A stretch of 45,731 nt of DNA, filler included, from Catajapyx aquilonaris (GCA_000934665.2; 2 parts of 2 records of this genome joined end to end with filler, not necessarily neighbours in it); one strand, 5' to 3'. Positions 7,842-45,465 are shown, counted from the whole stretch's first letter. Made by a program: numbers and translations. Notes: generated by a model from the sequence alone, not told the origin.

Positions 7842-7900
<59 letters not shown>

Positions 7901-20768: not shown

Positions 20769-20852
20769 CTGGAATGCAAGTAGATATTTGATGTGCAGTC
20801 ATATACACGACATAATTATTGCACATATTCAGAAATTCTTTACACTAGATTA

Positions 20853-20857
<5 letters not shown>

Positions 20858-20904
<47 letters not shown>

Positions 20905-24090: not shown

Positions 24091-25473
24091 TCAGCTTCGT
24101 ATGAAACAAATCACAGACATGTTTTTGTAGAGTAGAATAATTGCATCTCGGTAGCTCTGGATCCTGTATTAATGATAGGGGTACTTTTAAGTTATTGTAA
24201 CAACAGACTGAATCATAAAACATTGTTGGAGTAGCTTACCTGTAGACGTAAAGAAATACGTTGATGACGAAGTAGTAATTAGTGGAGAATGTGAAATATA
24301 TGTAAGGTCTGTCAAATGTGCTTCCTTTGAATGCCAGGTAGATGATGACTGGTGGTGCTGTCGTGCTGAAGTAAGCCAATCCCAGAAGAGTCAGAAGAAC
24401 AGTCATTTTCTTCTCTCTTTCCTTCAGGTCATGCAGTGTGGACTTGCCAATGTCTCTGGAAAGATTGGTACACCAGAGTGATCCTTCACATTACCATAGT
24501 TCCATGACTCACTTGAACTGCTTCAATTGAGACCAGTTCTGACGCAGCTTGATCCAGATCAGAAGGAGACAGACCAGGACAATGACCAGTGGGACAATCC
24601 TGTATAATCCATACATAACGTAGGCTTCTAAGTGATCCACTTCGACAATCATTGAGCATATTCCTTTGGTCCTGCTGTAGCCATAGCCATACTGAAACTG
24701 ATTGTGTCTTGTTAATACCGAGAGTGTATGGGCTATATCTAGTGTATGTCATTTTCTACGAGATTTTGGATGTGTGCTTCGTGGCATGCCGCTTTTAAAC
24801 TTCAATAGGTTTCAATTGTTTACTCACCGCCACATATATTGGCACCACACCTGATACCATCCACACAAACATCGCTGCAGGAACACCACTGTACGACTCA
24901 AAGAGAACGTCGTTGCCTGTAGGCCACCATAGTTGTAACGCCCTTTGCAGAAGGAAACGATAGTATTCAATTTGTTGCTTTTACATCGTAACAGTAATAA
25001 TACCTGCTCATTGTAGCTGCTGCCAAGGAATAAGAAGACGCCAAGGACATGTAGACGAGAAGAAAGCCGGAGAAGTAGCAACATCTGGTGCCCATAACCC
25101 ACTTTCGGCACAGAAACGTCACTCCCAAACCGGAGAGGTTGACGAAACAGTACAGTCCATCAGCCAGACTCAGGCTGAGAAGAAGGACAGTGGTTGGGCT
25201 CTTGAGAGGACTTCTAGGGTCCCTGGTCCTCCACCTGGCGTAGGGAATGGCCACCAGCACCAGCAAGTTGCCAAATCCTCCAACCACACTCAGGAGGAGC
25301 CAATATATGCCTACAATAATGGTGAAATAGTAAGGATGGTCCGGGAAGCAGCATGATGGCACCTCTTGTTGTGTCAGACACACTCGAGATGTCTCCTGGT
25401 CGTCTCTTGCACAGAAAGACGACACATTCAGGCCGATGCTGGAGGAGTTGTTGACCTGTACAGAGCCTCTCAT
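24091..25473 (-). CDS. Class A GPCR, Tre1/moody-like, copy G1; exons 25004-25473, 24828-24942, 24513-24697, 24240-24455, 24091-24163 (352 aa)
   Basis: 7 hydrophobic helices; GN in TM1, LSLAD in TM2, WVMG..C in ECL1/TM3, INVFLY in TM7; all introns GT-AG and in frame; a 2-bp insertion shortens the C-tail. Confidence 0.85.
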
Positions 25474-25865
25474 TGCTAGTGAGTGACTGGTTGTAATGGC
25501 GTAGAAAAGTTTATTGTTTTGAGATAAATATTGTGTTCTTTTTCTCTGATTGATGACTCCCTGTGACAATGGATTCGAGCATTATTTGCCCCAGTGTCGA
25601 TGAACTGTACTATTTGCATGCAGTGTCAAACAGAAAACAATGGGTCAGTCCCCCAACATGAAAACCTTTTCCCCTGTTTGATATGCATTGACAAAGACTG
25701 ACTTATCAAATAAAGCTTCTGAGACAATATTGCGACCTGTTGATTTTATTGATGAAGACGTTGACGACAAATTAGTAGAGGGTTGGATAAGCTTTCACAA
25801 TCATTATTGTTTATTGTTATTGTTACCATTGCTGGCCCACTCGTATTGAGCGAAAATATTAACTA

Positions 25866-26830
25866 CAGGGTGTCGAAAAATATTATTCTAAATCTCTCTT
25901 TTTTCACTTTTCTTATGCCTTGCCATCAGTAGGCTGGTTCCATTTCAATTCAGACAGAGGGTGCCCAGTCATGGTCTTCGATTTTTTTAAAAAATATATG
26001 CGTGAAACCCACATCCAATTGAACTTTTATGGAGCAATTTGTTTTACGAGATTAAATTTAGTTATCGAGATATTAATAGTTTTGTTAAGGGGTACCAAAA
26101 TGACATTCCCGGGAAGGTGCATTTTTTCCATTGCTTTCAATGAGTATATTTCCGGAACCGTTCTGAAAACCAATATGAAATTTTAAACTCATGCTTTTGG
26201 AAGAATGCACTGTTATGTAATGCATACAATTGCCTTATTTAATGGTACAGTCACCTGCAAGCAAATCTCCAACATTGCATATTTTGGTCAAAATGCGCAT
26301 ATTTCGCAATTTATTACGGCGTTATGGTAAACGTGACGGTTGTGCCGATTATATTTTGTGATATACTCGGTGACCCCCTAAATGTCATGCAATAAAACCT
26401 TTGCTAGCTCCGCGTGTAGTTGAGATATGCGAGGTGAAAATATGGCAACAAGCGAAAACACCCATATTTCAAAAATTATTTTCTCAAAAAGCCAAATTTT
26501 TATTTTTTATTTTTTATTTTTTATTTTACACGGACAGACAGGTTATAAAATAAGGTAGTGTCAAAACCCGGTGCATATTTTTTGTAAGTGAGATACACTT
26601 TTTTTCAGATGACAACTTTAGTCATTGTGCTACAATATAGCACACTTCATATAAATATTTTCTCGAAGAAGCCATTTTGAATATTTAATCGTTATTTTTT
26701 GTATAACAAAGTAGCATGAGTTCTATTATAAAATTATATCAAAATTCGGTATGCACAATGCCGTAATTTACTAGTACAGTCATCTTTAAAAAAAATGCCA
26801 AAAGTGCTTGTTTTGCAGGAAATTCACTTA
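25866..26830. mobile_element. Probable decayed non-autonomous DNA transposon sequence
   Basis: Starts TA|CAGGGTGTC like Tc1/mariner ends; AT-rich; absent from other array units; right TIR not found. Confidence 0.35.
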
Positions 26831-26942
26831 GTACGCAATTTATTATGTTGATTTTATTGATGAAAACGTTGATGACAAATTAGTATGCCGAGAAACATGC
26901 TTCACAAAACACCAGTTCACTTCTACGCTATTAGTTTACCAC

Positions 26943-28333
26943 CTACGTATTTCTGATAATCATTGAAGGATTTACACCACATTGTTCTATGTCATTATTC
27001 CGCCGGAGACTGAACTTCGTATGTAACAAGTCGCACGTGTCTCTGTAGAGTAGAATAAAGGCATTCCGGTAGTTCTGGATCCTGAAATAATGACAGGAGT
27101 ACTTTATGTAACGACAGACAGAATCACGCAACATTGTTGGAGAGGATTAATTTATGAATTACCTGTATATGTAAAGAAATACATTGATTACAAAATAGCA
27201 ATGAGTGTAGAAGGTATAATATATGTAAGGCTTGTTAAACGAGCTAGTTTTGTACACTATGTATATGATTGCTGGTACTGTCGTGGCGGAGTAAGCCACT
27301 CCTAGAAGAGTCAGAAGAACAGTCATTCTCTTCTCTCTCTCCTTCAGGTCCTGTATCATGGTCTTACAAACGTCTCTGGAAACATCGGTACATGAGAGCC
27401 ATCACAGGTCATCCTTCACCGTGTCATGACTTGCCTGAACTGCTTCAGTAGAGACCAGTTTTGCCGCAGCTTGATCCAGATCAGAAGGAGGCACACCAGG
27501 GAAGTGATCCATGGAAGGTATACGGATACTCCGAACAGAATGTAGATTAGTCCTACCGGATGATTCTCTCCAATAATCACCGTGCATATTCCTCTGGTCC
27601 TGCTGTAGCCATATCCATACTGAAACTGTTTGTGTCTGGGTAACAATACAAATGCATCCCTTTTAACCTCAATGCGTTTGAATTATTTACTCACCGCTCC
27701 ATGTGTTGGCACAACTGCTGCCAACATCCACACAAAGAGCACTGCAGGAACACCACTGTACGATTCGAAGAAGACCTCGTTAACTGCAGGCCACCATTGT
27801 TGTAACGCCCTTTGCAAATGGAAACTATTCAAATTGCGGCATCTACATTGTAACATCAATAAATACCTGTTGAGTGTAGCGGCTACCAGGGAATTTGAAG
27901 AGGCCAAGACTAAGTAGAGGAGGAGAAAGCCGGAAACGTGGCAATAACCGGTGCAAAAGACCCACTTCCGGTGTAGAAAAGCCACTCCTATGCCGGACAG
28001 GATGATGAAACAGTACAGTCCATCTGCCAAACTCAGGCTGAGAAGGAGCACTGTGGTTGAGCTCTTCAGAGGACTTCGATGGTCCGTTTCCTTCCACCTG
28101 GCGTAGGGCAAGGCCACTAGAGCCATGAGGTTGCCCAATCCTCCAACCACACTCAGGATGAGCCAAAACGTCCCTACTGTGACAGTGAAGTAGTAGGGAT
28201 GGTCCGGGAAGCAACATGATGGCACCTCCTGTTGGGTCAAACACACTAGAGATGTCTCCTGGTCGTCTCTCGTGCAAAAGGAAGTCACATTTAGGTTGAT
28301 GGCGGATGTGTTCACCAGCACTGATCCTACCAT
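26943..28333 (-). CDS. Tre1-like GPCR copy G2; exons 27867-28333, 27695-27809, 27435-27625, 27163-27375, 26943-27081 (374 aa)
   Basis: Paralog of G1 with identical intron positions; intron 3 uses a GC donor (AG|GCAAGT); open throughout. Confidence 0.85.
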
Positions 28334-28550
28334 GGCGAGGGATCAGATGGAATTGTAAGGGAAGGGCCGTTATGTAATGAACACTGTCACTGAGAAGTCT
28401 GGGATTAATCCTAACTGATGACTTGCTGTAACAATGGATGCTAGCATACTTTATCACAGTAACGATGGTATATTTGCATGTAATGTCAAAGAGAAAACAA
28501 TGGGACAACACACGACACGTTGTATTTGTGGTATTTTGCCGGAATGTTGA

Positions 28551-29894
28551 TTAGATTTTGCTTAACTTCCCACGGAGCAGGTCTAGTGTGTCTCTGTAGA
28601 GCAAAATAAATGCATTCCTGTAGCTCTGGATCCTGAAATAATGATAGCATCTTCTGTGACGACGGACAGAATCACAATGTATTGTTGGAGTAAGTTAATT
28701 CTACCTGTAGATGTAAAGAAAAACGTTGATGACGTAGCAATATCCCAAGATGAAGGTATAATACACATATGGTTTGTAAAATATGCTTCCTTTGAACACT
28801 CCGTTTAGGATTACTACTGGTGTTGTTGTGCTGACGAAAACAGCTCCCAGAAGAGTCAGAAGTACGGTCATTCTCTTCTCTCTCTTCTTCAGATCCTGTA
28901 GTGTGGCTTTTCCGATGTCTCTGTAAACATCGGTACAGCCATCACAAGGCACAGCCCAAGCCATCCTTCACCCCACATCACAGTTCCATGACTTACTTGA
29001 ACTCCTTCAGTTGAGACCAGTTCTGGCGCAGTTTGATCCAGACCAGAAGGAGGCAGACCAGGACAGTGATATAGGGAAGACCTGCAGCTATTCCGAACAC
29101 ACCGTACATAACATGCCCATTCCCTTCCATAATCATTGTACACATTCCTTTCCTTCTGCTGTAGCCAGAGCCATAGAAACACTGTATCAGGATTTAAAAG
29201 ATATATCAGATCGCCATCAGCCATATTGTCATGTTCCCACATGTTGACAATGAGTGCTTCTGGGAATCACCGCGAATTCTCACCTCTCCAAATGTTGGCA
29301 CCACTACTGCCAGAATCCACGCAAACAGCACTACAGGAAATGCACTGTACGACTTAAAGAGGACATCATTCCCTGCAGGCCACCATTGTTGTAACGCCCT
29401 TTGTAAGTGGAAACGAGACGTAATATTGTGGCTTATAATAAAAATACGTTGTATTACTAATAATACCTGCTGAGTGTAGCCGCTGCCAAGGAATTGGAAG
29501 AAGCCAAGTATACGCAGAGGGAGAGGAAGCCCGAAACGTAGCAATATCTGGCACCAAAGACCCACTTCCGGAGAAGAAATGTAACTCCCATACCGAATAG
29601 GTTGATGAAACAGCAGAGACTGTCCGCCAGACTCACGTTGAGCAAGAGTACTGTGGTTGGACTCTTCAGAGGACTTCGAGGGTCCGTGGTCCTCCATCTG
29701 GCGTAGGGAATGGCCACCAGGACCATCAGATTGCCTAATCCTCCAACCACACTCAAGAGGAGCCAGTATGTCCCTGCTATCATCGTGAAGTAGTGAGGAT
29801 GGTCCGGGAAGCAGCAGGAAGGAGCATCCTCTTGGGTCAAGCACACTAGAGATGTCTCCTGGTCGTCTCTTGTGCAGAAGGAAGACACGTTCAT
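28551..29894 (-). CDS. Tre1-like GPCR copy G3; exons 29467-29894, 29284-29398, 28997-29181, 28705-28920, 28551-28632 (341 aa from the second Met)
   Basis: Same exon structure; ancestral ATG is ATA at 29933 (alternative in-frame ATGs at 29894 and 30029); CAA>TAA shortens the C-tail. Confidence 0.75.
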
Positions 29895-30225
29895 GCTGAG
29901 TGTGGAGGTGTTGACCTGCACAGATCCTCTTATTGCTAGAGAGAGACTGGATGGAATGGCTGGGAGCAGCTTGTTATGGGATTTTTTTTCTCCAAGTAAT
30001 GAATAAATTGTTTTGACAATGCATGTCATCCTTATTTACCGATCGATGTGATATTTGTGTGTACTGTCAAACAGAAACAATGGGATGACCCCCAATATGT
30101 CCCATGATTGGTGCACTCAAATAAAACTTATGCCAAGGTTAGATAAGACATTCGTAAATAGGAAGAAGCCAGAGCTTGTTATTGCTGACCCACTCAAGTT
30201 GAGCAAATAGATAAAATATAAGCCT

Positions 30226-30378
30226 ACCCTCCCCACGATGTATCTCCACCTTGACGTGGTGGTTGGGCTTGCGTTTTCTCATGATCCCGAAGAGCTATGC
30301 CGCCGGTATATTCGTCTACTGCTGGTAGGGTCCAAGGCGCACAGGTCTTTGGGGTAGGAGACAGACGAGATACCAGTC
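30226..30378 (+). mobile_element. Isolated RTE-type LINE 5'-UTR fragment (structured RNA)
   Basis: CCACCTTGACGTGGTGG..GATCCCGAAGAGCTATG..CTGGTAGGGTCCAAGGC..CAGGTC..CAGAC resembles, from recall, Expander/BovB-like RTE 5' UTRs; several helices can be drawn. Confidence 0.55.
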
Positions 30379-30713
30379 TTTCCTCTCTTCTTTTCTTCGA
30401 GTCTTCTGGTAGCCAGATAGCCACAGTTGCTTGGCTCTTTTTACGCAAACAAACCATAATTTTACACACTTCCATTGTAAGGGAATGAGCTATTGCATTT
30501 ATTAATGCTTGGAATGATCTCTGCATATATCTGAACGCTTTTTCCCCGTGCGAAGAACGGGTATTGCAGCTATAGTAATTAAATAAAAATTAAATAAAAG
30601 ACAGCTAATTTTTGAGAAAGGTAGATTGTGACTTCAATAAACTCCTTCCAAATACACTTTTAAAATAGCTTACCAGCATATTGGGATCCTCATTGAAATA
30701 TTTAAAGACCATG

Positions 30714-31611
30714 TCACAGGTCTACCATATCATTATTCCGCCGGAATATTGGTCGGCTGAGCATCACATGGCACAGGTCACATGTGTCTCTGTAGAGTAG
30801 AATAAATGCATCTCGGTAGCTTGGGATCCTGCAATAATGATAAAATCATCTTATGTGACATTGTTGGAGTAGCTTAATTATTACCTGTATACGTAAAGAA
30901 GAACGTTGATGACGTAGTAATAAGGCAAGATGAAGGTATAATACACGTAAGATTTATTAAAAATATTTCCTTTGAACACTCCGCCTATGATGATTGCTGG
31001 TGCTGTCGTGCTGACGAAAGCAGCTCCCAGAAGAGTCAGAAGGACGGTCATTCTCCTCTCTCTTTCCTTCAGGTCATGCAGTGTGGCCTTGCCAATGTCT
31101 CTGGAAACAGTGGCACATACGATTCATCATTAACCCCATCGCTACCGGTGTGACGGAACCCGAAGGGGTTAACCACATCAAAGTTCCATGACTCACTTGA
31201 ACTGCTTCAGTTGAGACCAGTTCTGTCGCAGCTTGATCCAGATGAGAAGGAGGCAGACCAGGACAGTGATATAGGAAAGACCTGCAGCTATTCCGAACAG
31301 ACAGTACATAACTGGCTGGTTCCCTTCGATAATCATTGAGCACATTCCTCTCCTTCTGCTGTAGCCAGAGCCATAGTGACACTGAATCAGGACAAAATAA
31401 TTATATCAGCTAGTCATTAGCAATATCAGCTAATTCTCACCTCCCCAAATGTTGGTACCACTGCTGCCAACACCCACGCTACCACGACTGCAGGAACGCC
31501 ACTGTACGACTTAAAGGGGACGCGGTTACCTGCAGGCCACCAGTGCTGTAACGCCCTTTGTAACCGGAAACGAGACTATTCATATTGTGGCATCTATATA
31601 CGTACAGTGCA

Positions 31612-31684
<73 letters not shown>

Positions 31685-32151
31685 CTGCTGAGTGTAGCTG
31701 CTGCCAGGGAATTGGAAGAAGCCAAGTATAAGTAGATGGTGAAGAAGCCCAGAACGTGGCAATATCCGGTACCCATGAACCACTTCCGGAGGAGAAAGGT
31801 CACTCCCAAACCTGACAGGTTGATGAAACAATATAGTCCATCAGCCAGACTCAGGCTGAGAAGAAGGACAGTGGTTGAACTCTTCAGGGGACTTCGAGGA
31901 TCAGTGATCTTCCACCTGGCGTAGGGCAATGCCACCAGAGCCATCAGATTCCCAAATCCTCCGACCACACTCAGGAGGAGCCAGTATGTCCCTGCTATCA
32001 CTGTGAAGTATTCAGGGTAGTCCGGGAAGCAACAGGAAGGAGCATCCTCTTGGGTCAGACACACTCGCGATGTCTCGTGGTCGTCTCTTGTGCAGAAGGA
32101 AGACACATTCATGCTGAGTGTGGAGGTGTTGACCTGCACAGAGCCTCTCAT
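30714..32151 (-). CDS. Tre1-like GPCR copy G4; exons 31685-32151, 31441-31555, 31197-31381, 30885-31100, 30714-30828 (365 aa)
   Basis: Open through all five exons; (TAA)n expansion in intron 1 (31612-31682). Confidence 0.87.
31134..31168. mobile_element. Internally deleted TTAA-specific (piggyBac-like) MITE remnant in G4 intron 3
   Basis: TTAA|CCCCATCG...CGAAGGGG|TTAA at the same intron position as the 35715-36016 element. Confidence 0.6.
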
Positions 32152-32739
32152 TGCTATAGAGAGAGACTGGATGGAATGGCTGGGAGCAGCTTGTCCATGG
32201 GTTGCACATGGGGCGATTTTTCCTGAGTAATGAATAAATATTGCTGTGACAATGGATGCGATCGTTATTTCTTTTACCAAAGTATCGAAGTGACATTTGC
32301 GTGTACTGTCAAACAGAAAACAATGAGACAATCCCCAATGTGACACATAATTGGTGCACTCAAATAAGACTGGTACTAAGGTTATATCGCAATAAGATAA
32401 AGTACAAGGTTTATTTAAGGCCAGTGTACGGCCCCATGATGTGTCAGATTAATATTACTATATATAACTTACTATATAGACTCATCAGTAGTAAGCTGTT
32501 TGTCACGGCTTTGATTGTTTGTTATTAATATTCCTTCCAGTCAACAGCACGCAGCCACAATTCAGGGAGCCTGTATCGTACACTATCAACTCTTGTCACA
32601 CGCGACACCAGTGTTGTATTGAGAGCACGTCAGATCAACAAAACAACGACTCTTTGTAGCTCCATAAGGACCATATCACAATTCCTTCACAATAGGTACT
32701 TCACCATTAGCATTGGTTTAGTATGGCAATTAAGTTTCT

Positions 32740-34156
32740 TCAACTTCTCGGTTGTATTTTATTAGTCCGTCGGAATGTTGATTGGATTTTGCTTAACTTC
32801 CTATGTATCAGGTCTCGTGTGTCTCTGTAGAGCAAAATAAATGCATCCCGGTAGTTTGGTATCCTGAAATAATGATAGAAACATCTGTAACGACAGAGAA
32901 AATCACGCAGCATTGTTGCAGTAACGTATTAAATAATTACCTGTAGACATACAGAAATACGTTGATGACAAAGTGGTAATGCAAGAAGAAGGCATAATAC
33001 ACGTAAGGTTTGAGAAGAAAGCCTCTTTTGAATACGCCGTTTATGATGAATATTGGCGCTGCTGTGCTGGAAGAAACCAGTCCCAGAAGAGTCAGAAGGA
33101 CGGTCATTCTCTTCTCTCTTTCCTTCAGGTCCTGCAGTGTGACCTTGCCAATATCTCTGGAAAGAACGATATATAATATTATAGTGATCCTTCATCTCAC
33201 CACAGTACCATGATTCACTTGAACTGCTTTAGTTGAGACCAGTTCTGTCGCAGTTTGATCCAGACCAGAAGGAGGCAGATCAGGACAATGACCCAAGGTA
33301 GACCTGTAGCTATTCCGAACAGAACGTACGTAACTTCCTCATTCTCTTCGACAATCATTGTGCATATTCCTTTCCTTCTGCTGTAGCCAGAGCCATAGTG
33401 ATACTGTATCAGAATTATATAAAACATCAGATCGTCATGAGCACTACTGTCATCTTCACACATGTTGATAGTGAATGCTTCTATAGCAATCACCGCGAAT
33501 TCTCACCTCCCCAAATGATGGCACCACTACTGCCAACATCCACGCAAACACCGCTGCAGGAACTGCACTGTACGACTTAAAGAGGACATCATTCCCTGCA
33601 GGCCACCACTGTTGTAACGCCCTTTGTAAATGGAAACTAGACTTCACATTGTGGCTTATAATAAAAATACGTTGTATTACTAATAATACCTGCTGAGTGT
33701 AGCGGCTGCCAAGGAATTGGAAGAGGCCAAGGATAAACAGAGGGAGAGGAAGCTCGAAACGTGGCAACATCTGGCACCCAAGACCCACCTCCGGAGAAGA
33801 AATGTAACTCCCAAACCGGATAGGCTGATGAAACAGTACAGTCCATCGGCCAGACTCACGCTGAGCAAGAGTACTGTGGTTGGGCTCTTCAGAGGACTTC
33901 GAGGGTCAGTGGTCCTCCACCTGGCGTAAGGAATGGCCACCAGAGCCATCAGGTTGCCAAATCCTCCAACAACACTCAGGAGGATCCAGTATGTCGCTGC
34001 TATCACTCTGAAGTATTCAGGATAGTCCGGGAAGCAGCACGAGGGAGGATCCTCTTGGGTCAAGCACACTCGAGATGTCTCGTGGTCGTCTCTCGTGCAG
34101 AAGGAAGACACATTCATGCTGAGTGTGGAGGTATTGACCAGCACTGAACCTCTCAT
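32740..34156 (-). CDS. Tre1-like GPCR copy G5; exons 33690-34156, 33507-33621, 33219-33403, 32941-33156, 32740-32863 (368 aa)
   Basis: Open through all five exons, canonical splice sites. Confidence 0.87.
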
Positions 34157-34780
34157 TGCTAGAGAGAGACTAGATGGAAAGGCTGGGAGCTGCTTGTTAT
34201 GGGATGCACATGAGGGAGGGGGGGGAGGGTTCTAAGTAATGAATAAATTGTTTTGACAATGCATGCCATCCTTAGTTACCGAACGATGTAATATTTGCGT
34301 GTAGTGTCAGACAGAAACAAAGGGCCAATCCCCAATATGTCCCATGATTGTTGCACTAAAATAAAACTTCTGCGAAGGTTAGATAAGACATTCGTAAATA
34401 GGAAGAAGCCAGACCTTGCTATTGCTAACCCACTCAAATTGAGCAAAAAGTGAACCAGACATGGCCTTAGTACCTTATTATACTAATGAGGCATTCCGCG
34501 TCAACTAGGACCACTTTTCCGACAAATATTTCCCGATTTCGATCAAATTTCACAGATTTGTAGTAGTTGTCGTTGTAGGTAAGGGACCGAGATTTCGTCT
34601 CTCTGTGACACGTGGCTGCGAAACTACAGGGTGTGTAATTCAGATTTGTCACTCATTTGACGCTGTCAGGGCTTGTAATGGAGGCCCCTAACCTCTGAAC
34701 CCCTAAAGTGAATCCAAATCTGATATGTGATTTAGGAAGCTCTTTTAAAGGCCTTTAATAATATCGCATTGAAAGCATGA

Positions 34781-34882
34781 CCCCTCCTGTTGGGTCAGAC
34801 ACCCTAGAGATGTCTCATCCTCGTCTCTAGCACAGAAGGAGGACACGTTCAGGTTGACCTCCCTATCATGGCAAGAGACTGG
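34781..34882 (-). pseudogene. N-terminal remnant of a GPCR copy
   Basis: Encodes NLNVSSFCARDEDETSLGCLTQQEG only; the rest of the gene is absent. Confidence 0.75.
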
Positions 34883-35065
34883 AGAGAAAAATTGTTGTGC
34901 TATTTACACTCCGAGATTATTCGTAGGTGACGGCAATAGAGCAGTGAATTTATGTGCCCTCCTGAATGACATGTCAATGGGACACGTCCACCATGCGATG
35001 CTAGAACGTCACTAAAAATAGGACACAGACAGGGTTATAACGGACGTAATAGTCAGTCATTTTAT

Positions 35066-35625: not shown

Positions 35626-36919
35626 CGGTCATTCTCTTCTCTCGTTCCTTCAGGTGCTGTAGCGTGGCCTTGCCAATATCTCTGGAAACATTGGTACATG
35701 GAAATAGTCATTAACCCCCTTCGCTGCCAGCGAAAAAGGACGGGACGAAAAAGCCTAGATTTTCGCGTGCACTAGCTTACTCTGAAGATAAGGACAGATA
35801 TTTTACAAACAATATCAGCTATACTTACACGTTCATTAAACCACTATGAGTTTGGACAATTTTGTATATGCAAAATTCTTCAAAACGCATTCGTAGTGAT
35901 TTCCATGAACAGGTGAATACGTATAACTGATATTATTTGTAAAATATTTTGTCCGTATACTCAGGATATGCGCCAGAGAAAATTAGACATTTTTGGCCCA
36001 GCTGGTAATGAGGGGGTTAACCACATCAAAGTTCCATGACTCACTTGAACTCCTTCAGTTGAGACCAGTTCTGGCGCAACTTGATCCAGATCAGAAGGAG
36101 GCAGACCAGGGCAGTGATGTAGGGAAGACTTGCAGCTATTCCGTATATAACGTACGTATTTTGGTCATTCATTGTGCACATTCCTCTCCTTCTGCTATAG
36201 CCAGATCCAAAGTGACACTGTATCAGGACAAAATAATTATATCAGCTCGTCAGCAGCAATATCAGAGTCTAATTCTCACCGCCCCAAATGTCGGTACCAC
36301 TGCTGCCAACACCCACGCTACCACGACTGCAGGAACGCCACTGTACGACTTAAAGAGGACGTTGTTGCATGCAGGCCACCAGTGCTGTAACGCCCTTTGT
36401 AAACGGAAACGAGACTATTCATATTGTGGCTTCTACAGTGCAATAATTGAAATAATACCTGCTGAGTGTAGCTGCTGCCAGGGAATTGGAAGAGGCCAAG
36501 TATAAGTAGATTATGAAGAAGCCGGAAATGGGACAATATCAGGTACCCAAGACCCACTTCCGGCGGATAAACGTCACTCCCAAACCTGACAGGTTGATGA
36601 AACAGTACAGTCCATCAGCCAGACTCAGGCTCAGAAGAAGGACCGTGGTTGGACTCTTGAGGGGACTTCGAGGGTCCTTTGTCTTCCACCTGGCATAGGG
36701 CAATGCCACCAGAACCATCAGGTTGCCAAATCCTCCGACCACACTTAGAAGAATCCAGTATGTCCCTGCTATCACTGTGAAGTATTGAGGATAGTCCGGG
36801 AAACAACAGGAAGGAGCATCCTCTTGGGTCAGACACACTCCAGATGTCTCCTGGTCGTCTCTTGTGCAGAAGGAGGACAAGTTCACTGTGGCGGTGTTGA
36901 CCTGCACAGAGCCTCTCAT
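35626..36919 (-). pseudogene. Tre1-like GPCR pseudogene G6
   Basis: In-frame TGA at 36539-36541 (WVLGT*); 12-nt deletion in exon 3; truncated within exon 4 before TM6; exon 5 missing. Confidence 0.9.
35715..36016. mobile_element. TTAA-specific (piggyBac-like) MITE in G6 intron 3
   Basis: TTAA|CCCCCTTCGCTGCCAGC ... GCTGGTAATGAGGGGG|TTAA; the site is empty in G7. Confidence 0.8.
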
Positions 36920-37269
36920 TGCTAGAGTAAGACTGGATGTCTGGATGGAAATGACTGGGAGCAGCTTGTTATGTGATGCATATGGGGGAATTTTTCCTCA
37001 GTAAGGAATAAAAATATTTCTGTGACAACGGATGCGATCATTATTTACCAAAGTATCGATGTGATATGTGTAGGCTACTGTCAAACAGAAAACAATGAAA
37101 CAATCCCCAATGTGTCACCTGATTAGTGCACTAAAATAATGTGAGTGTCAATTATTGTTGTGTCATAATTTAATTCCGAATAATACATTTTGGGTGGTTG
37201 CGAAATTTGTCTTGTTCAACATATCGGTATGATGATGCCATGTATCTCAGAGATTGCATCATCTTTTGG

Positions 37270-37448
37270 GGCGGGGAAAACCCCTGCCTTGTCGGAAGAC
37301 ACCCTCCCCAACAATCCCTTTCCCTACCCTATATCCCGAAAGTCCTTGCACGGAGATTGAAGAAAAATCGGTAAAAGTATCTCTAAATGATGGTAATCCA
37401 CTCCTCTTTAAACCCTAATCGGGTTATCACGGGGTAATAGAAAAAAAT
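37270..37448 (+). mobile_element. Decayed SINE 3' portion related to family 1
   Basis: CCCTACCC..GTCCTTGCAC..GATGGT..CACGGGGTA plus A-rich tail; interrupts the conserved upstream region of G6. Confidence 0.55.
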
Positions 37449-37784
37449 TAAGACATTCGTAATGAGTTAGAAGCAAGAGGTAGTCATTGCTGACCCATTC
37501 AAGTTCAGCAAAACGATAAAGTACATGGTTTATTTAAAATTATTATCACTCTCTCTTGTTTTCCTCTTTATTCCATGATTATTAAGCCCAATGTATTGTT
37601 CATCATCCAAACAGCACATTAATGCCGTCTAATGTCTCACAGTCAAGGAGCTGAAGTAGAACAAAATATTCAGGCTGAAGCCTAATACCCATTTTTATTG
37701 ACTAACAAACATTATTTGCAATTACAATTACAATGACGTACGTTAGTTCACAATACGTACAGGCACTTCACCACAACCAACTCT

Positions 37785-39114
37785 TCAGGATGGTAATTCA
37801 TTTCTTGAAGATCTTTGCGGTATTTTATCACTCCGCAAGAATGTTGATTGCAATTTGCTTAACCCCTCATGTAGCAGGACTAGTGTGTCTCTGTAGAGTA
37901 GAATAAATGCATCCCGGTAGCTCGGGATCCTGAAATAACGATAAAATCATCTTATGTGACGACAAAGCATTGTTGGAGTAGCTTAATTATTACCTGTATA
38001 CGTAAAGAAAAACGTTGATGACGTAGTAAAAAGGCAAGATGAAGGTATAATACACGTAAGATTTGCTAGAAATGCTTCCTTTGAACGCCGCGAATATGAT
38101 GATTACTGGTGTTGTTGTGCTGACGAAAGCAGCTCCCAGAAGAGTCAGGAGGACGGTCATTCTCTTCTCTCGTTCCTTCAGGTGCTGTAGCGTGGCCTTG
38201 CCAATGTCTCTGGAAACATCGGTACATGCGAATCCTCACTAACCACATCAAACTTCCATGACTCACTTGTACTGCTTCAGTTGAGACCAGTTCTGGCGCA
38301 GTTTGATCCAGACCAGAAGGAGGCAGACCAGGACAGTGATATAGGGAAGACCTGCAGCTATTCCGTATGCAACGTCCATAACTTGCTGATTCCCTTCGAT
38401 AATCATTGTGCACATTCCTCTCCTTCTGCTATAGCCAGATCCATAGTGACACTGTGTCAGGACAAAATAATTATATCGGCTAGTCATCAGCAATATCAGC
38501 TAATTCTCACCGCTCCAAATGTTGGCACCACTGCTGCCAACACCCACACAATCACCGCTGCAGGAACACCACTGTACGACTTAAAGAGGACGCGGTTACC
38601 TGCAGGCCACCAGTGCTGTAACGCCCTTTGTAAACGGAAACGAGACTATTCATATTGTGGCATCTACAGTGCAATAGCAATAATACCTGCTCATTGTAGC
38701 TGCTGCCAGGGAATTGGAAGAGGCCAAGTATGAGTAGAGGGAGATGAAGCTTGTAATGTGGCAATATCCAGTACCCAAGATATTCTTCCGGCTGAGAAAC
38801 GTCACTCCCAAACCGGTGAGGTTGATGAAACAGTACAGTCCATCAGCCAGACTCAGGCTGAGAAGAAGGACCGTGGTTGGACTCTTGAGGGGACTTCGAG
38901 GATCAGTGATCTTCCACCTGGCGTAGGGCAAGGCCACCAGCACCATCAGGTTGCCGAATCCTCCAACCACACTCAGGAGGATCCAGTATGTCCCTGCTAT
39001 CACTGTGAAGTATTCAGGATAGTCCGGGAAGCAGCAGGAAGGAGCACCCTCTTGGGTCAAGCACACTAGAGATGTCTCCTGGTCGTCTCTTGTGCAGAAG
39101 GAAGACACGTTCAT
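37785..39114 (-). CDS. Tre1-like GPCR copy G7; exons 38687-39114, 38511-38625, 38267-38451, 37994-38209, 37785-37929 (362 aa from the second Met)
   Basis: Open in all exons; ancestral ATG is ATA at 39153 (in-frame ATGs at 39114 and 39240); ECL1 Trp replaced (RKNILG). Confidence 0.8.
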
Positions 39115-39728
39115 GCTGAGTGTGGAGGTGTTGACCTGCACATATCCTCTTATTGCTACAGAGACACTGGGTGGAATGGCTGGGAGCAGCTTGTTATGGC
39201 ATCCACCTGTGGGGATTTTTCCTGAGTAATGAATAAACATTTCTGTGAAAATGGATGCGATTATTAATTACCAAAGTATCGATGCGATATTTTGTGCGTA
39301 GGCTACTGTCAAACAGAAAACAATGAGACAATCCCCATTGTGTTGCATGATTAGTGTACTAAAATTTGTCCCAAGGTTAATAATTAAGCCATTCGTAAAG
39401 AGTTAGAAGCCAGAGCTAGTCATTGCTGACCCATTCAAGTTCAGCAAAAAGATAAAGTAGGCTACATGGTTGATTCTCACTGTCTCTTCTTTTCCTCTTT
39501 ATTCCATGATAAGCCCAATTTATTGTCCATCGTCCAAACTCACATTCTCACTAATGTTGTCTATTGTCTCACATCAAGGAGCTGAAGTAGAACAAAATAT
39601 TCAGGCTGAAGCATAATACCCTTTATTATTTAATAACAAACATTATTTACAATTACAATTACAATGACGTACATTAGTTCACAATACGTACAGGCACTTC
39701 ACCACAACCAACACTTCAGGATGGCAAT

Positions 39729-41111
39729 TCAATTACTTGAAGATCTCGGTTGTATTTTATTACTCAGCCGGAATGTTGATTGGAATTTGCTTAACCTCCC
39801 ATGTATCAGGTCTCGTGTGTCTCTGTAGAATAAAATAAATGCATCCCGGTAGCTCGGGATCCTGTAATAATGATAGAAACATCTGTAACGACAGACTGAA
39901 TCACTAATCACTGTTGGAGTAACGTAATTAATAATTACCTGTAGACATAAAGAAATACGTTGATTAGAAAGTGGTAATGCAAGAAGAGCGTATAATACAC
40001 GTAAGGTTTGGTAAGAACGCTTCCTTTGAATGCCAGGTAGATGATGACTACTGGTGCTGCTGTGCTGGAATAAGCCAGTGCCAGAAGAGTCAGAAGGATG
40101 GTCATTTTCCTTTCTCTTTCCTTCAGGTCCTGCAGTGTGCCCTTGGCAATATATCTGGAAACATCGGTACATGAGATTCATCCTTCACCTTACCATAGTC
40201 ACACGATTTACTTGAACTCCTTCAGTTGAGACCAGTTCTGTCGCAGTTTGATCCAGATCAGAAGGAGGCAGAACAGGACAATGACCCAGGGTAAACTTGT
40301 AGCTATCCCGAACAAAAAGTACATAACTCGCTGCTCCCCTTCGATAGTCAGTGTGCAGGTTCCTTTCCTTCTGCTGTAGCCAGAGCCATAGCGAATCTGT
40401 ATCGAGAGAAAAATATCGGATCGGAATCATGACAATGAGTGCTTCTGGAAATCACCGCGAATTCTCACCTCCCCAAATGTTGGCACCACTGCTGCTAACA
40501 TCCACGCAAACACCGCTGCAGGGACACCACTGTACGACTTAAAGAGGACGTCGTTGCATGCAGGCCACCATAGTTGTAACGCCCTTTGCAAATGGAAACG
40601 AGACTATTCATATTGTGGCATCTACAGTGCAATAGCAATAATACCTGCTCATTGTAGCTGCTGCCAGGGAATTGGAAGAGGCCAAGTATAAGTGTAGGAA
40701 AAAGTAGCCGGTAACGTGGCAATATATGGTACCAAAGACCCATTTCTGTAGGAGGTAAGTCACTCCCAAACCGGACATGTTGATGAAGCAGAAGAGACAA
40801 TCAGCCAGACTCACGCTGATGAGAAGGACTGTAGTTGGGCTCTTCAGAGGACTTCGAGGGTCTGTGGTCTTCAATCTGCCATAGGGTATGGCCACAAGAG
40901 CCATCAGGTTGCCAAATCCTCCTACCACAGTCAGAAGGAAACAGTACGTTGCTGCGATGATGTTGAAGTAATGAGGAAATTCCGGGAAGCAGCACGATGG
41001 AGCATCCTCTTGGGTCAGACACACTCGAGATGTCTCCTGGTCGTCTCTTGTGCAGAAAGAAGACATGTTGAACTCGGCGATAGAAGTGTTGACCACCTCT
41101 GAACCAGCCAT
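39729..41111 (-). CDS. Tre1-like GPCR copy G8; exons 40645-41111, 40469-40583, 40212-40396, 39939-40154, 39729-39861 (371 aa)
   Basis: Open through all five exons, canonical splice sites. Confidence 0.87.
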
Positions 41112-42422
41112 TGTCGTCTGATTACGATGAAGTAAAGGCTAGATGTGACTTGATGCGGAGGAATGTGAATAGTAATAATATCAGACAGACACTGCCCGTT
41201 AAGTATATCAGAAAACAATGGGACAAGCCCCATCACACTCTGACATGAACCAAACAGACTTCCGACAAATGCGAAGGTTATCAAGTCATGCGATGAAACA
41301 ATAACTTTAAACATGAATATTTTCACTCTTCTACAAGTAAACAGGATAAACACTGCAAAAAAAATCTCCTTTCCCACCAATATCGCCGTCCTAGTCGACA
41401 GTGAGAAAAACGGGACAACAACGCATGGCTGATCCAAAAAATTAAAGGAATGTAATTAAAAAATTGAAGTTTTATTGGCACTTCCCTGTGTAGTGTAGCG
41501 CGACTGACAGTATTTCCCGTCAATTGTCACTCTAAATAATTATTAAGCTCACGCGATGACTTATTGTGTCATTGTATGCGAGTCCTGATGACACGTGATT
41601 ACATGTTTACAAGTTGGAAAAACAATGGAAAAGGTCACGATACGCATTTTAAAATATGCAATAAAAATAGCACAAATAGCAGCGACACCAATTGTAAAAA
41701 ATAAGTCTTCATTGGTTCTGCTGTAGCCACATTACTGGAACTAATGGTGTCTGGATAACAAAATCCCACCAAAAACATTTCTGTAAAAAAGGCCAAGTTC
41801 TCCTGACTGCTTGGCCGTCAAAAGTGGTGAGATCTGAAATACGGCCAACTCGGGTGGTATTTCCGATAAGACTAAACCACCCGGGGGAGTTCACAAACCG
41901 ACATTACCAACGACATTGCTCTGCCAACAGTTTGAAAAGTGTCATATGTCGTAATGTGACAGTAACATACTGTATGTCAGTGTACGATCACATGATGTAA
42001 TATCAGATTAATGCCAACTCTTGTACATTAGACCAGTCAGTAGTAAGCTGTTTGTTACAGCAATCATTTGGACACCTTTGACAATAATAATCAGACTCTT
42101 TCTGTCAACCGCAGGGAGTCGCAACGGGAACGGCTGATGGGCACTTTTGTCACACGCGACACCAGATGAGTCCATCTCTGTTCAACAAAGCACTTCCTGT
42201 ACGCTGTAGCTCCTTATCATGTAGGAAGGACTTCAATCATTCCGGTCTTCTTGACAATGTTTAAGTTATGAAATGAAGCCGCTGAGCCCTGTAGATGCAA
42301 AATGAAGACGTTGATGATAATGTAGTGTAGGGTAGATAATCAAGGAGCTGAAGTTGACCAACGTACATTACTTCACAATACCTGCCGGTCCTGCACCACA
42401 ACCACCTCTTCAGGATGCCAAT

Positions 42423-43845
42423 TCAATTACTTGAAGATCTCGGTTGTATTTTATTATTCCGCCGGAATGTTGATTGGACATTGCTTAACTTTTCATGTAG
42501 CAGGTCGAGTATGTCTCTGTAGAGTAGAATAAATGCATTCCGGTAGCTCGGGATCCTGAAATAATGACAGGAGTATTTTCAGCTACCACAGACAGAACGA
42601 CACAACATTGTTGGAGCAACGTAATGAATAATTACCTGTACACATAAAGAAATACGTTGATGACAAAGTTGTAATGCAAGAAGAAGGTATAATACACGTA
42701 AGGTTTGGCAAAAACGCTTCCTTTGAATACGCAGTTTATGATGACTACTGGTGCTGCTGTGCCGGAATAAGCCAGTCTCAGAAGAGTCAGAAGGACGGTC
42801 ATTCTCTTCTCTCTTTCCTTCAGGTCATACAGTGTGACCTTGCCGATGTCTCTGGAAAGAACGGTATATAAGAGTGGTCCTTCACCTCACCATAGTCCCA
42901 TGACTCACTTGAACTGCTTCAGTTGAGACCAGTTTTGGCGCAGTTTGATCCAGATCAGAAGGAGGCAGACCAGGACAGTGAACCATGGAAGACTCGCTGC
43001 TATTCCGAATAGAACATACTGGTAGTACGTAGCTAGTTGATTCCCTTCGATAATCATCGTACAGATTCCTTTCCTTCTGCTGTAGCCATCAGAGCCATAG
43101 CGAAACTGTGTCGAGAAAGATATTAGACTATCACCAGCATTATGTAGTCACTTCGACACTTGTTGGCAGTTAATGCTTCTAGGAAACACTGCGAATTCTC
43201 ACCTTCCCAAATGTTGGCACCACTGCTGCCAGCATCCACACAAACACTGCTGCCGGAACACCACTGCATGACTCAAAGAGGACGTTGTTGCATGCAGGCC
43301 ACCATTGTTGTAACGCCCTTTGCAGACGGAAACGAGCATATTCAATTTGTTACTTCTACACTGTAACAGCAATAATACCTGCTGAGTGTAGCTGCTGCCA
43401 GGGAATTGGAAGAAGCCAACAATAAATATATGAAAAGGAAGCCCGAAATGTGGCAATATCTGGTACCAAGGACCCACTTCCGGAAGAGGAAAGTCACTCC
43501 CAATCCGGACAAGTTGATGAAACAGAGCAGTCCATCCGCCAGACTCAGGCTGAGAAGAAGGACCGTGGTTGGACTCTTGAGGGGACTTCGAGGGTCCTTT
43601 GTCTTCCACCTGGCGTAGGGCAATGCGACCAGAGCCATCAGGTTCCCAAATCCTCCAACCACACTCAGAAGAAGCCAGTATGTCCCCACTATCACTGTGA
43701 AGTATTGAGGATGGTCCGGGAAGCAGCAGGAAGGAGCATCCTCTTGGGTCAGACACACCAGAGATGTCTCCTGGTCGTCTCTTGTGCAGAAGGAAGACAT
43801 ATTCAGGTCGATGAATGATGAGTTGACCCGCACTGATCCTACCAT
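42423..43845 (-). CDS. Tre1-like GPCR copy G9; exons 43379-43845, 43203-43317, 42909-43105, 42636-42851, 42423-42555 (375 aa)
   Basis: Open through all five exons; exon 3 is 12 nt longer (in-frame ECL2 insertions). Confidence 0.87.
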
Positions 43846-44109
43846 GGCAAGCGATTAGACGGAATGGCCATAGAAAGGCCTGTTACGCGATGAACATCCT
43901 GTGATTATTCCTAAGGACCTAAGTATCGATGGGGTAATTGCATGTACTGTCAAACAGAAAACAATAGAAAAACCCCCGACCGTGTCTCGCGATTGTCGCA
44001 CGAAGAAAATTACCAGGGTCGGATGAGAGTCGTAAATAGCAAGATATCATAGCATATACGATATTGCTGACCGACTCAAAAATAGCAAATATTAAAGTTG
44101 CGGGGGGCT

Positions 44110-44255
44110 GGGTTGATGAAACAGCAGAGACTGTCCGCCAGAATCACATTAAGCAAGAGTACTGTGGTTGGGCTCTTCAGGGGACTTCGAGGGTCCGAGG
44201 TCCTCCACCTGGAACAGGGAATGGCCACCAGCACGACCTGCGCTGAACCTCTCAT
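44110..44255 (-). pseudogene. Deleted GPCR exon-1 fragment, G3-like
   Basis: MRGSAQV fused directly to VLVAIPCSRWRTSDPRSPLKSPTTVLLLNVILADSLCCFIN, then homology stops; retains its own upstream module at ~44398. Confidence 0.8.
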
Positions 44256-44547
44256 TGCTGGAGAGAGACTGGATGAAATGGCTATAGGAGCAGCTTGTTA
44301 TGGGATGAACATGCTGGATAAATATCGAGTAATGAATTGCTGTAACAATTGATTCGAATATTATTTACCGAAGTAGTGATGGAATATTTGTATGCACTGT
44401 CACGTAGAAAACAATGGGACAACCCCCTATGACCTTCCCGTTATTATTTATTGAATCACATACTAACCCAGGAACTGGCACATTCCAAAGTACCATTTCG
44501 CTGCACATTATGTTGTAAGTGTATGGAGACTTTGAATCACTTGAAGT

Positions 44548-45465
44548 TCACGGTACTATTTCATCATTCCCCTGGAATGTTGCTTTGATTTTCTGCAGAT
44601 TCGCATGAAACAGGTCACACATGTCTCTGTAGAGTAGAATAATTGCATCCCGGTAGCTTGGGATCCTGCAAAATGACAGGGGTACTTTTTGTAACGACAG
44701 ACAGAATCACAAAATATTGTTGAATTAGCTTACCTGTAGACGTAAAGAAATACGTTGATGACATAGTAGTACTGGGTCCAGAAAGTGAAATATACGTATG
44801 GTTTGGCAAACGTGTTTACTTTGAATGCAAGGTTGAGGATGACTGGGGGTGCTGCTGAGCTGGAATAAGCCAGTCCCAGAAGAGTCAGAAGGACGGTCAT
44901 TCTCTTCTCTCTTTCCTTCAGGTCATGCAGTGTGGACTGGCCAATGTCCCTGGAAACATCGGTACATGAGATTCATCTTCGCATCACGATAGTTCCATCT
45001 TCCATGACTCACTTGAATTGCTTCAGTTGAGACCAGTTCTGGCGCAGCTTGATCCAGATCAGAAGGAGGCAGACCAGGACAGTTACCAATGGCACAATTC
45101 TGTATAATCCGTACAGAACGTATGGTTCTGCCTGCTTCCCTTCGACAATGATCGAGCACATCCCTTTGGTCCTGCTGTAGCCATAGCCATACTGAAACTG
45201 TTTGTGTATTGATAATACGTATCGGCTATATCCATGTGATTTTTTACGAGTTTTTCGTGGGATGTAGTGGGTCTGACAGTGAGTGAGGATTATTATTGGT
45301 CTGGCTATCCCCTCGGTTTTAACCTCAGTAGGTTTCGATTATTTACTCACCGTCGCATATATTGGCACCACACCTGATACCATCCACACGAACACAGTTG
45401 CAGGAACACCACTGCAAGACTTAAAGAGAACGTCGTTACCTGCGGGCCACCATTGTTGTAACGCC
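44548..45465 (-). CDS. Tre1-like GPCR copy G10, 5'-partial (exon 1 outside the window); exons 45351-45465, 45013-45197, 44734-44949, 44548-44665
   Basis: Exons 2-5 open with canonical sites; closest to G1 (WMVSGVVPIY, YGLYRIVPLV). Confidence 0.8.

Follow-up and report, generated by a model that had tools for sequence, protein, structure and literature searches.

The receptor gene array

On the minus strand of the window (the whole 45,731-nucleotide stretch of Catajapyx aquilonaris DNA that was analyzed, filler included), positions 45465-24091 carry ten units of the same five-exon class A GPCR gene, arranged head to tail. They comprise eight complete and open genes, one copy cut by the window edge (A, exons 2-5 only), and one pseudogene (E); at least two exon-1 relics lie between units. 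A tblastn search with the first coding exon of one copy returned nine full-length exon-1 matches and two fragments, all on the minus strand, and queries for all five exons retrieved the same ordered exon series in every unit. Gene models were transferred from a MAFFT alignment of nine units (1913 columns). The products of the eight complete genes have 352 to 375 aa, and each of these genes contains four introns of 56 to 130 nt with identical positions and phases. Every donor is GT and every acceptor AG, the single exception being a GC donor in gene I. Start-to-start spacing between units is 1600-2860 nt, and the spacers between them vary from 217 to 1493 nt. The only N runs of the window, at 22798-22897, are outside the array. 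No receptor exon was found from 24091 to a SET-domain exon at 20398-20844. The only matches of this flanking exon were 55% identical and corresponded to NSD/Mes-4-type fly proteins.

An earlier note on this DNA had described head-to-tail copies with fragments, identical intron positions, and birth-and-death evolution. The exon searches, with hits on the minus strand throughout, bear out the first of these claims and the eight complete genes the second, and the third fits the presence of a pseudogene and two or more relics in a set of ten units. The end points that it gave are exact, 24091 being the stop of gene J and 45465 the start of exon 2 of unit A, but its count of ten copies plus a pseudogene needs correction, because the ten units include both the pseudogene and the edge-cut copy.

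The individual units, all on the minus strand, are as follows. Unit A (44548..45465) consists of exons 2-5, which are open and have intact AG/GT splice sites; its exon 1 is absent from the window, and the 270 nt preceding exon 2 show no relationship to the first intron or first exon of the other copies. The relic between A and B (44111..44313) is a rearranged exon 1 with an internal deletion, made of two adjoining pieces that correspond to the exon-1 start plus upstream sequence and to the exon-1 middle, respectively. Gene B (42423..43845) is complete, with five coding exons and a product of 375 aa; the exon search gave a weak exon-3-like match at 41622..41732, and gene C (39729..41111) is again complete (371 aa). 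Genes D (37785..39153) and H (28551..29933) are open throughout, and these two of the eight genes have ATA where the shared ATG is expected, with in-frame ATGs 13 codons downstream and 32 to 36 codons upstream (32 in D). Pseudogene E (35627..36919, the lower coordinate being approximate) has damaged exons 1, 3, and 4: exon 1 contains an in-frame TGA, exon 3 has lost 12 nt, and exon 4 survives, after an inserted foreign sequence, only as its 18 initial codons; both the TM6-TM7 part and exon 5 are missing. A relic of the 5' part of exon 1 (34769..34879; 39 aa, 49% identity to copy H) is located between E and gene F (32740..34156), which is complete and encodes 368 aa. Gene G (30714..32151; complete, 365 aa) has an intron 1 of 129 nt, lengthened by an internal (TAT)n microsatellite. 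Gene H has the shortest C-terminal tail among the copies, and its stop is only 217 nt from the start of gene I (26943..28333; complete, 374 aa), in which the GC donor belongs to intron 3. The last unit is gene J (24091..25473; complete, 352 aa).

Repeated spacings (1958/2234/2763 versus 2005/2218) suggested a clean duplication of a three-gene block. The identities speak against this, since D, E, and G are mutually about 90% identical and F and H 89%, whereas C and F share only 82%.

Class A signatures and activation motifs

Exon 1 matched the Pfam family 7tm_1 (PF00001) with 32.2 bits in H and 32.3 bits in D (cutoff, 30.5; E of about 1e-7), which bears out the class A assignment of the earlier note; the exon-3 and exon-4 pieces, queried singly, gave no 7tm_1 match. 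Kyte-Doolittle profiles showed seven peaks in G and six in B and J, where TM7 remained under the same threshold, and all seven helices align with those of full-length relatives. Judged by their sequences, the array genes are class A GPCRs. Every copy shown keeps N1.50, D2.50, R3.50, W4.50, P6.50, N7.49, and Y7.53, and P5.50 is present in B and J and replaced by S in G.

Several positions of the activation core are altered. (i) In seven of the eight copies the TM3 motif is S-R-A; gene I, with N-R-A, is alone in having N in place of S before the conserved arginine. D/E-R-Y is absent. (ii) P7.50 is replaced by V in all eight complete copies and in A, so that TM7 reads N-V-(F/L)-L-Y in all copies and N-P-x-x-Y is absent. 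(iii) Position 6.48 is T or A and position 5.58 is L, by which the aromatic residue of C-W-x-P and Y5.58 are replaced. Activation of these receptors is probably atypical, and the loss of P7.50, Y5.58, and the residues at 3.49 and 3.51 could mean weak or no G-protein coupling. An exon-4 (TM6-TM7) profile retrieved no GPCR from the PDB sequences, even at an E value of 10. The AlphaFold2 model of the exon-1 alignment (N terminus plus TM1-TM3) had a mean pLDDT of 51, with residues 1-44 below 50, and is uninformative on the cysteine-rich cap.

Relationship to Tre1, moody, and GPR84

In a search of 1.84 billion representatives, all named matches were "trapped in endoderm-1(-like)", except for one "unnamed protein product"; the best Tre1-like named matches came from a copepod, a mite, horseshoe crabs, and ticks. 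Identity is only 22-28%, and no close ortholog was found among these representatives, E values below 1e-30 being reached by one 123-aa fragment only. When a profile built from the closest relatives was used for searching, moody, moody-like, and GPR84-like proteins ranked above trissin, opsin, and tachykinin receptors. The exon-1 pattern matched 195 stretches in metagenome loci, none of which was confirmed, and the ESM Atlas returned generic 7tm_1 clusters only. Of 1029 candidates from a word-indexed search with exon 1 for longer proteins, none received a score.

The rows of the maximum-likelihood tree were drawn from matches to the array or to its relatives, and just three named outgroups were included. 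The array forms a monophyletic group (100/100) inside a 29-row clade (100/99) that adjoins the Tre1+moody clade (96/92). Both clades fall into a larger group of 44 rows (91/89), which also contains GPR84-like proteins and is set apart from the trissin, tachykinin, and opsin-like rows. With 2.21 changes per column, the array has a very long stem, and its exact place within the clade is therefore unsure. The AU test rejected a grouping of the array with seven canonical Tre1-type rows (log-likelihood difference 34.7, p 0.006), a group that was defined after the tree had been seen. Position 7.50 is F, V, or Y in 22 of the 24 sister-clade rows shown, the other two having gaps, and P in 16 of the 18 rows outside. 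The designation "Tre1-like" in the earlier note thus stands as far as the named matches are concerned, but not for the placement of the array, which falls outside the Tre1+moody clade, is separated from the canonical rows by the AU test, and does not keep NRY and NPIIY. On the evidence of the alignments and the tree, the array very probably represents a highly divergent branch of the orphan class A GPCRs related to Tre1, moody, and GPR84.

Divergence and selection among the copies

Protein identity between copies is 61-82% and dS is 0.23-0.61; the closest pair is no nearer than 82% at the protein and 91% at the DNA level. In view of these protein identities and dS values, the copies are not assembly or haplotype artifacts, and the array is a real lineage-specific receptor expansion. 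Pairwise estimates for the eight complete genes gave dN/dS values of 0.31-0.52 in all 28 pairs, and the value for the whole CDS never exceeded 1.

Change is distributed unevenly along the protein. The extracellular TM halves and ECLs (137 columns) are 27% invariant, with a dN of 0.236 and an omega of 0.49, as compared to 54%, 0.110, and 0.29, respectively, for the intracellular halves and ICLs (147 columns). The main differences among paralogs are found in the extracellular halves of TM3-TM7 and in ECL2/ECL3; the cytoplasmic face, namely, ICL1, ICL2, the TM5-ICL3-TM6 junction, and helix 8, is near fixed. Also fixed is a cysteine-rich N-terminal segment that carries a glycosylation sequon, and 56% of the 48 N-terminal columns are invariant. 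Omega reached 1.05 in the outer half of TM4 (dN>dS in 18 of 28 pairs) and 0.96 in that of TM6 (14 of 28 pairs); values clearly above 1 were not found in any region in these pairwise comparisons of eight genes. The 27 positions that we take to form the ligand pocket carry 2.63 distinct residues, versus 1.85 at 180 other TM positions (permutation p 0.0011), and within the extracellular halves they are not significantly more variable than their neighbors (p 0.08). Four to five different residues occur among the eight copies at each of 3.32, 3.36, 5.39, 6.51, 6.55, and 7.43. The family had been called pocket-diversified, and the concentration of change on the ligand side agrees with this description. 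In most sets of GPCR paralogs, the extracellular side evolves faster.

Interpretation of the array

We propose that the array is a selected, birth-and-death expansion of divergent Tre1/moody/GPR84-related receptors that have diversified in ligand recognition, and we assign this explanation as a whole a probability of roughly 0.6. Its structural and evolutionary core is very probably correct; that the copies are ligand-diversified sensors is suggested more tentatively, at somewhat less than even odds. A lineage-specific tandem expansion has very probably been kept by selection under continuing turnover, and each unit is a gene of its own, with a start, four short introns, and a stop, that encodes a seven-helix receptor of about 350-375 aa. 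The copies may form a small repertoire of different ligand specificities served by one common intracellular transducer. Their ligands would probably be small hydrophobic or lipid-like molecules, as suggested by the kinship with Tre1, for which a lipid cue is suspected, and with GPR84, which the available part of one study describes as the human Tre1 homolog and as a receptor for medium-chain fatty acids (PMC5584160). Since dN/dS is high for a GPCR, we lean slightly toward cues from the environment, food, or microbes over hormones.

Where such cues would be received can be conceived in different ways. If the receptors are placed in sensory neurons of antennae, mouthparts, or legs, they would constitute an external chemosensory repertoire, that is, GPCR-based smell or taste in an arthropod. 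We see this as possible, at odds well short of even. It would account for a tandem lineage-specific expansion with a pseudogene, for diversification on the ligand side, and for the conserved cytoplasmic face, the same criteria by which class A chemoreceptors have been nominated in molluscs and annelids (PMC11886862, in the part available). Among the orphan class A receptors of decapods, several show enrichment in the olfactory flagellum, Tre1R and MoodyR of one crayfish among them, but Tre1R and moody were not detected in spiny lobster olfactory neurons, both according to the accessible sections of PMC8177520, and the portion available of another article attributes crustacean chemoreception to IRs, TRP channels, and GR-like receptors (PMC7067487). 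Furthermore, ten units are a small number for a chemoreceptor repertoire.

Alternatively, the copies may be internal or barrier sensors on hemocytes, gut, or epidermis that respond to lipids or to metabolites of microbes, after the model of GPR84 and of Tre1 in migrating cells. Membership in the Tre1/moody/GPR84 group and a dN/dS relatively high, as fits microbe-facing genes, make this a possible assignment, likewise at odds well short of even; the similarity is low (33% over 88 aa to GPR84-like and 22-26% to Tre1-like proteins), and the motifs through which Tre1 signals are changed in the array. A wider proposal, which we regard as doubtful, is that the array and the P7.50-less clade together form an arthropod chemoreceptor system, based on GPCRs, that perceives hydrophobic cues of external or microbial origin. 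The invariant cap at the cysteine-rich N terminus would then act as a docking site common to the receptors, perhaps for a carrier protein or for a part that the ligands share, the variable TM3-TM7 pocket would read the cue, and the atypical activation core would signal via one shared partner.

Duplicated receptors for endogenous peptide or lipid hormones, subfunctionalized by tissue or stage, are unlikely to explain the array. All pairs are under purifying selection, the strongly conserved N-terminal segment could bind a common part of the ligand, and two peptide receptors, galanin R1 and orexin R2, are among the weak matches to PDB sequences. However, hormone receptors typically show dN/dS values lower than 0.31-0.52, the residues lining the pocket differ among the copies at the six positions given above, and no close ortholog turned up among the 1.84 billion representatives.

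It is very unlikely that the units are decaying genes or non-signaling seven-helix proteins (decoys or scaffolds) that have lost their activation switches. S-R-A in place of D/E/N-R-Y, L in place of Y5.58, T or A in place of the aromatic residue at 6.48, and V in place of P7.50 would be expected in this case, and a pseudogene, relics, and two copies that miss the shared ATG are indeed present. Nevertheless, eight of nine units (edge-cut A aside) have open frames and undamaged splice sites, none of the 28 pairs reaches a dN/dS of 1, and R3.50, D2.50, N7.49, and Y7.53 are retained. Conservation is highest on the cytoplasmic face, which speaks for a conserved partner inside the cell, and the loss of P7.50 is common to the whole sister clade, which is still kept in many organisms. 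The possibility that the copies are assembly or haplotype artifacts is negligible given a closest pair with only 82% protein and 91% DNA identity, dS values of at least 0.23, spacers of differing length, and N runs confined to sequence outside the array.

In arthropods, smell and taste are attributed to ionotropic receptors (ORs, GRs, IRs, and TRP channels), and Tre1 and moody are developmental and barrier receptors for which we know of no identified ligand. As a selected and ligand-diversified expansion, the array could supply natural variants for finding what the Tre1/moody receptor group binds, and it could reveal the workings of a class A receptor that lacks the customary DRY, Y5.58, and NPxxY proline. 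Should the copies be expressed in sensory or immune cells, chemical sensing in arthropods would gain a metabotropic arm. If the array and its sister clade did form a chemoreceptor system, this would be the first family of metabotropic chemoreceptors in arthropods, a phylum in which the chemical senses are ascribed to ion-channel receptors. Expression elsewhere would make the array one more of the many fast-evolving orphan GPCR clusters that animals have.

Comparison with known systems

Drosophila Tre1 and its arthropod orthologs are, like the array, class A receptors of the orphan type and belong to the same larger tree group (91/89). Tre1-like proteins share only 22-26% identity with the array, and the fly Tre1 gene is single-copy, as opposed to ten units. 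W6.48 is replaced in Tre1 and moody as well, there by F or Y and in the array by T or A, and the array has a longer ICL1 and a cysteine-rich N terminus. The Tre1 ortholog group is characterized by a function in cell migration and by coupling to G-alpha-o. Tre1 signals through the motifs NRY in TM3 and NPIIY in TM7, as stated in the part available of PMC5584160; the array has S-R-A (N-R-A in I) and N-V-x-x-Y instead.

Members of the sister clade include the Tigriopus californicus "protein trapped in endoderm-1-like" (XP_059083231.1), Penaeus "moody-like", and many metagenome or transcriptome proteins. They share with the array the replacement of P7.50 by F, V, or Y, an S/T-R-C/A motif in TM3, a conserved N-terminal cysteine pair, and a P-Y-A type motif that ends TM1 and is followed by a long ICL1. 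The best full-length member (P0004) is 28% identical to the array. The array is distinguished by having V instead of F at position 7.50, L at 5.58, and either T or A at 6.48, and it has four fixed N-terminal cysteines versus two in the sister clade.

Vertebrate GPR84 falls into the same wider tree group. For the exons 1, it was the third-best solved structure in sequence comparison (E 6.6e-4), a weak match that covers TM1-TM3 only, and it was outscored by galanin receptor 1 (E 1.9e-4). A shark GPR84-like protein is 33% identical to the array over 88 aa; GPR84-like proteins keep NPxxY, whereas the array does not.

The literature searches returned no report of such a receptor system, and the array is plausibly an undescribed lineage-specific receptor system. 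The closest parallel in organization is offered by the Lophotrochozoa, in which tandem lineage-specific class A GPCR expansions have been proposed as chemoreceptors (PMC11886862, in the part available). As described there, those families and the array have in common tandem clusters, a mixture of full-length, truncated, and pseudogene copies without one-to-one orthologs, and more variable extracellular TM segments. They differ in that the lophotrochozoan families belong to another phylum and another class A branch, number hundreds as opposed to ten units, and are said to keep DRY and NPxxY. On the evidence of the same part of that study, a tandem lineage-specific class A GPCR expansion is a familiar pattern in other phyla.

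Ten receptor units form the array

When the first coding exon of a single copy served as the tblastn query, nine full copies and two fragments of exon 1 were retrieved, all on the minus strand, and queries with the other exons recovered an identical ordered exon series in each unit. The ten units, A to J, run on the minus strand from position 45465 to 24091, exactly the extent given in the earlier note. That note had counted at least 10 copies plus a pseudogene; ten units are indeed present, but this total includes a pseudogene (E) and a copy cut by the window end (A). Nine units were aligned over 1913 columns, and splice sites were read from the junctions of copy H and then transferred to the rest. 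Eight units (B, C, D, F, G, H, I, and J) are complete open genes encoding 352 to 375 amino acids, each with four introns of 56 to 130 nt whose positions and phases are identical across copies. Splice sites are GT-AG throughout these genes, with a GC donor in I as the sole exception, and start-to-start distances between units are 1600 to 2860 nt. Unit E is interrupted by an in-frame TGA in exon 1 and has lost 12 nt of exon 3; of its exon 4, just the first 18 codons remain. In unit A, exons 2 to 5 are open and have good splice sites; the 270 nt 5' of exon 2 are unrelated sequence, so that exon 1 is either beyond the window or lost. Relics of exon 1 were found between A and B (rearranged) and between E and F. 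The shared start position reads ATA in D and H, both frames of which stay open; alternatives are an ATG 13 codons downstream and in-frame ATGs 32 to 36 codons upstream. Seven hydropathy peaks were observed in G, and the alignment spans all helices; every unit constitutes its own gene, which encodes a receptor with seven helices.

Several features were noted in and between the units. A pyrimidine-rich run ending in TAG, located 2 to 3 nt 5' of the start, precedes C-A-ATG (ATA in D and H) in six of nine units (D, E, F, G, H, and J; for example, 32154-32170) and is missing from B, C, and I. It looks like a splice acceptor, and an upstream exon, non-coding or coding, own or shared, is therefore possible. 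With only 217 nt (28334-28550) between the stop of H and the start of I, a terminator and a promoter would have little space, and it is conceivable that transcripts read through or are shared. Among the eight genes, conservation of intron 1 equals that of the exons (mean pairwise identity, 81%; for example, 29399-29466), compared with 63 to 76% for introns 2 to 4 and 59% for the preceding 150 nt upstream of the genes. In gene G, intron 1 is doubled in length by a (TAT)n/(ATA)n microsatellite (31611-31683); others were found at 3120-3800, 7304-7360, 7840-7900, and 20853-20904.

The window is animal DNA that contains microsatellites and has a G+C content of 36 to 47%. Its four N sites all lie outside the array: two runs of 44 N each (22798-22841 and 22854-22897), about 1.2 kb past the last gene, and single Ns at 15774 and 22474. 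A dispersed 365-nt repeat is present in two copies of opposite orientation with 93% identity (3337-3697, plus strand; 11712-12070, minus strand), and a weaker pair (8091-8207 and 21132-21248) is 78% identical. Past the 3' end of the array, the nearest gene is represented by an open exon with a SET domain (20398-20844, minus strand; Pfam E value, 1.6e-17), whose closest relatives are histone methyltransferases of the NSD/Mes-4 type (about 55% identity). An F-box exon (8395-8739, plus strand; Pfam F-box-like, 1.4e-10) is followed by an open stretch of 275 amino acids (9559-10386, plus strand) with a weak, sub-threshold LRR match; the two probably form one F-box/LRR gene.

The copies are old duplicates under purifying selection

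Pairwise identities among the eight genes are 61 to 82% for the proteins and 75 to 91% for the DNA of exons 1 to 3, introns included. The copies are thus real and not an artifact. By the Nei-Gojobori method, dS ranged from 0.23 to 0.61 and dN/dS from 0.31 to 0.52 in every one of the 28 pairs, indicating old duplicates under purifying selection. By GPCR standards, this dN/dS range corresponds to loose constraint.

The array falls beside the canonical Tre1 and moody receptors

Exon 1 matched Pfam 7tm_1 slightly over the cut-off. A search of other indexed DNA retrieved no sequence similar to exon 1 of the array. Among solved structures, it retrieved 74 sequences at an E value of ≤1, with weak matches to galanin receptor 1 (1.9e-4), GPR84 (6.6e-4), and orexin receptor 2 (1.3e-3); the TM6-TM7 exon retrieved no GPCR from the same structures. 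A profile of the eight exon 1 peptides had 175 matches at ≤0.001 in 1.84 billion representative proteins, five of them below 1e-10 and a single one below 1e-30, a 123-amino-acid fragment 51 to 67% identical to the copies. Names were found for 5 of the 20 match clusters examined: four are "trapped in endoderm-1(-like)" (Tigriopus, Dermatophagoides, Tachypleus/Limulus, and Rhipicephalus), and the fifth is an unnamed ostracod product. A second profile, built from nine full-length relatives without names, retrieved moody, moody-like, and one GPR84-like protein and, more distantly, trissin, opsin-like, and tachykinin receptors.

The maximum-likelihood tree was built from 50 rows taken from the match lists and 398 columns, with three named outgroups only and long branches. 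In this tree, (i) the eight genes are monophyletic (100/100), and their stem branch is very long (2.21); (ii) they are nested in a 29-row clade (100/99) together with a Tigriopus "Tre1-like" protein, a Penaeus "moody-like" protein, and unnamed sequences; (iii) the canonical Tre1+moody clade (96/92) stands beside this clade; and (iv) both belong to a 44-row group that also includes GPR84-like proteins (91/89). Constraining the array to group with seven canonical Tre1-type rows, a group chosen after the first tree was known, worsened the log-likelihood by 34.7 units (AU test, P = 0.006). Canonical Tre1/moody rows carry N-R-Y/F, C-F/Y-L-P, and N-P-x-x-Y; in the 29-row clade, the sequence is S/T-R-C/A, the first intracellular loop, which follows a P-Y-A type motif, is longer, and the N terminus carries a pair of cysteines. 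At the TM7 proline site, F, V, or Y occupies 22 of the 24 rows of this clade shown (gaps in the other 2), and proline is present in 16 of the 18 rows shown outside it. Changes specific to the array are V at 7.50, L at 5.58, and T or A at 6.48 (class A numbering). Taken together, the tree, the AU test, and the motif table show that the array genes are Tre1/moody relatives in the wide sense and not Tre1 orthologues. The label "Tre1-like" of the earlier note holds for the named matches and the shared 44-row group but not for the canonical clade.

Variation is concentrated in the outer halves of the helices

Helices were numbered via conserved anchor residues. In the extracellular helix halves and loops, 27% of the 137 columns are invariant (dN, 0.236; omega, 0.49); in the corresponding intracellular parts, 54% of the 147 columns are invariant (dN, 0.110; omega, 0.29). 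Omega reached 1.05 in the outer half of TM4 and 0.96 in that of TM6, and region-wise counts across the eight genes identified no region clearly above 1. The first 48 columns are 56% invariant and include four cysteines present in every copy, along with N-glycosylation sequons. Both the N-terminal cap and the cytoplasmic face are nearly fixed, and variation falls in the outer halves of TM3 to TM7 and in ECL2/3. At 27 class A pocket positions taken from the general literature, we found 2.63 distinct residues, versus 1.85 at 180 other helix positions (permutation P = 0.0011); within the extracellular halves alone, the excess was not significant (P = 0.08). The view that the family is pocket-diversified thus receives modest support, and the same pattern is common to many GPCR paralogue sets.

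Proposed function and comparison with known systems

We infer that the copies would differ in the ligands they recognize and signal through a single shared partner. Signaling is plausible since D2.50, R3.50, N7.49, and Y7.53 are retained. Y5.58, P7.50, the aromatic residue at 6.48, and the residues on either side of R3.50 have been lost, which suggests that activation takes an unusual route or that basal activity is unusual. Small hydrophobic ligands are favored. The cues may come from outside, as in smell or taste; they may be of microbial or dietary origin and act on gut or hemocytes; or they may be hormonal.

According to PMC5584160, fly Tre1 signals through canonical N-R-Y/F- and N-P-x-x-Y-type motifs. 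Canonical Tre1/moody receptors keep the TM7 proline, whereas the array and its 29-row clade have replaced it. According to PMC8177520, the olfactory organ of decapods is enriched for many orphan class A receptors, with Tre1R and MoodyR among them in one crayfish; for spiny lobster olfactory neurons, the same study gives Tre1R and moody as not detected. No report of a tandem Tre1/moody-like expansion in arthropods was found in the full-text literature searched, which was mostly outside subscription journals. The array is real and tidy but small. PMC11886862 describes class A families of molluscs, annelids, and flatworms that have expanded in tandem in a lineage-specific manner, vary at the extracellular ends of their helices, and are candidate chemoreceptors; tandem clustering and higher variability in the extracellular helix segments are also seen in the array.
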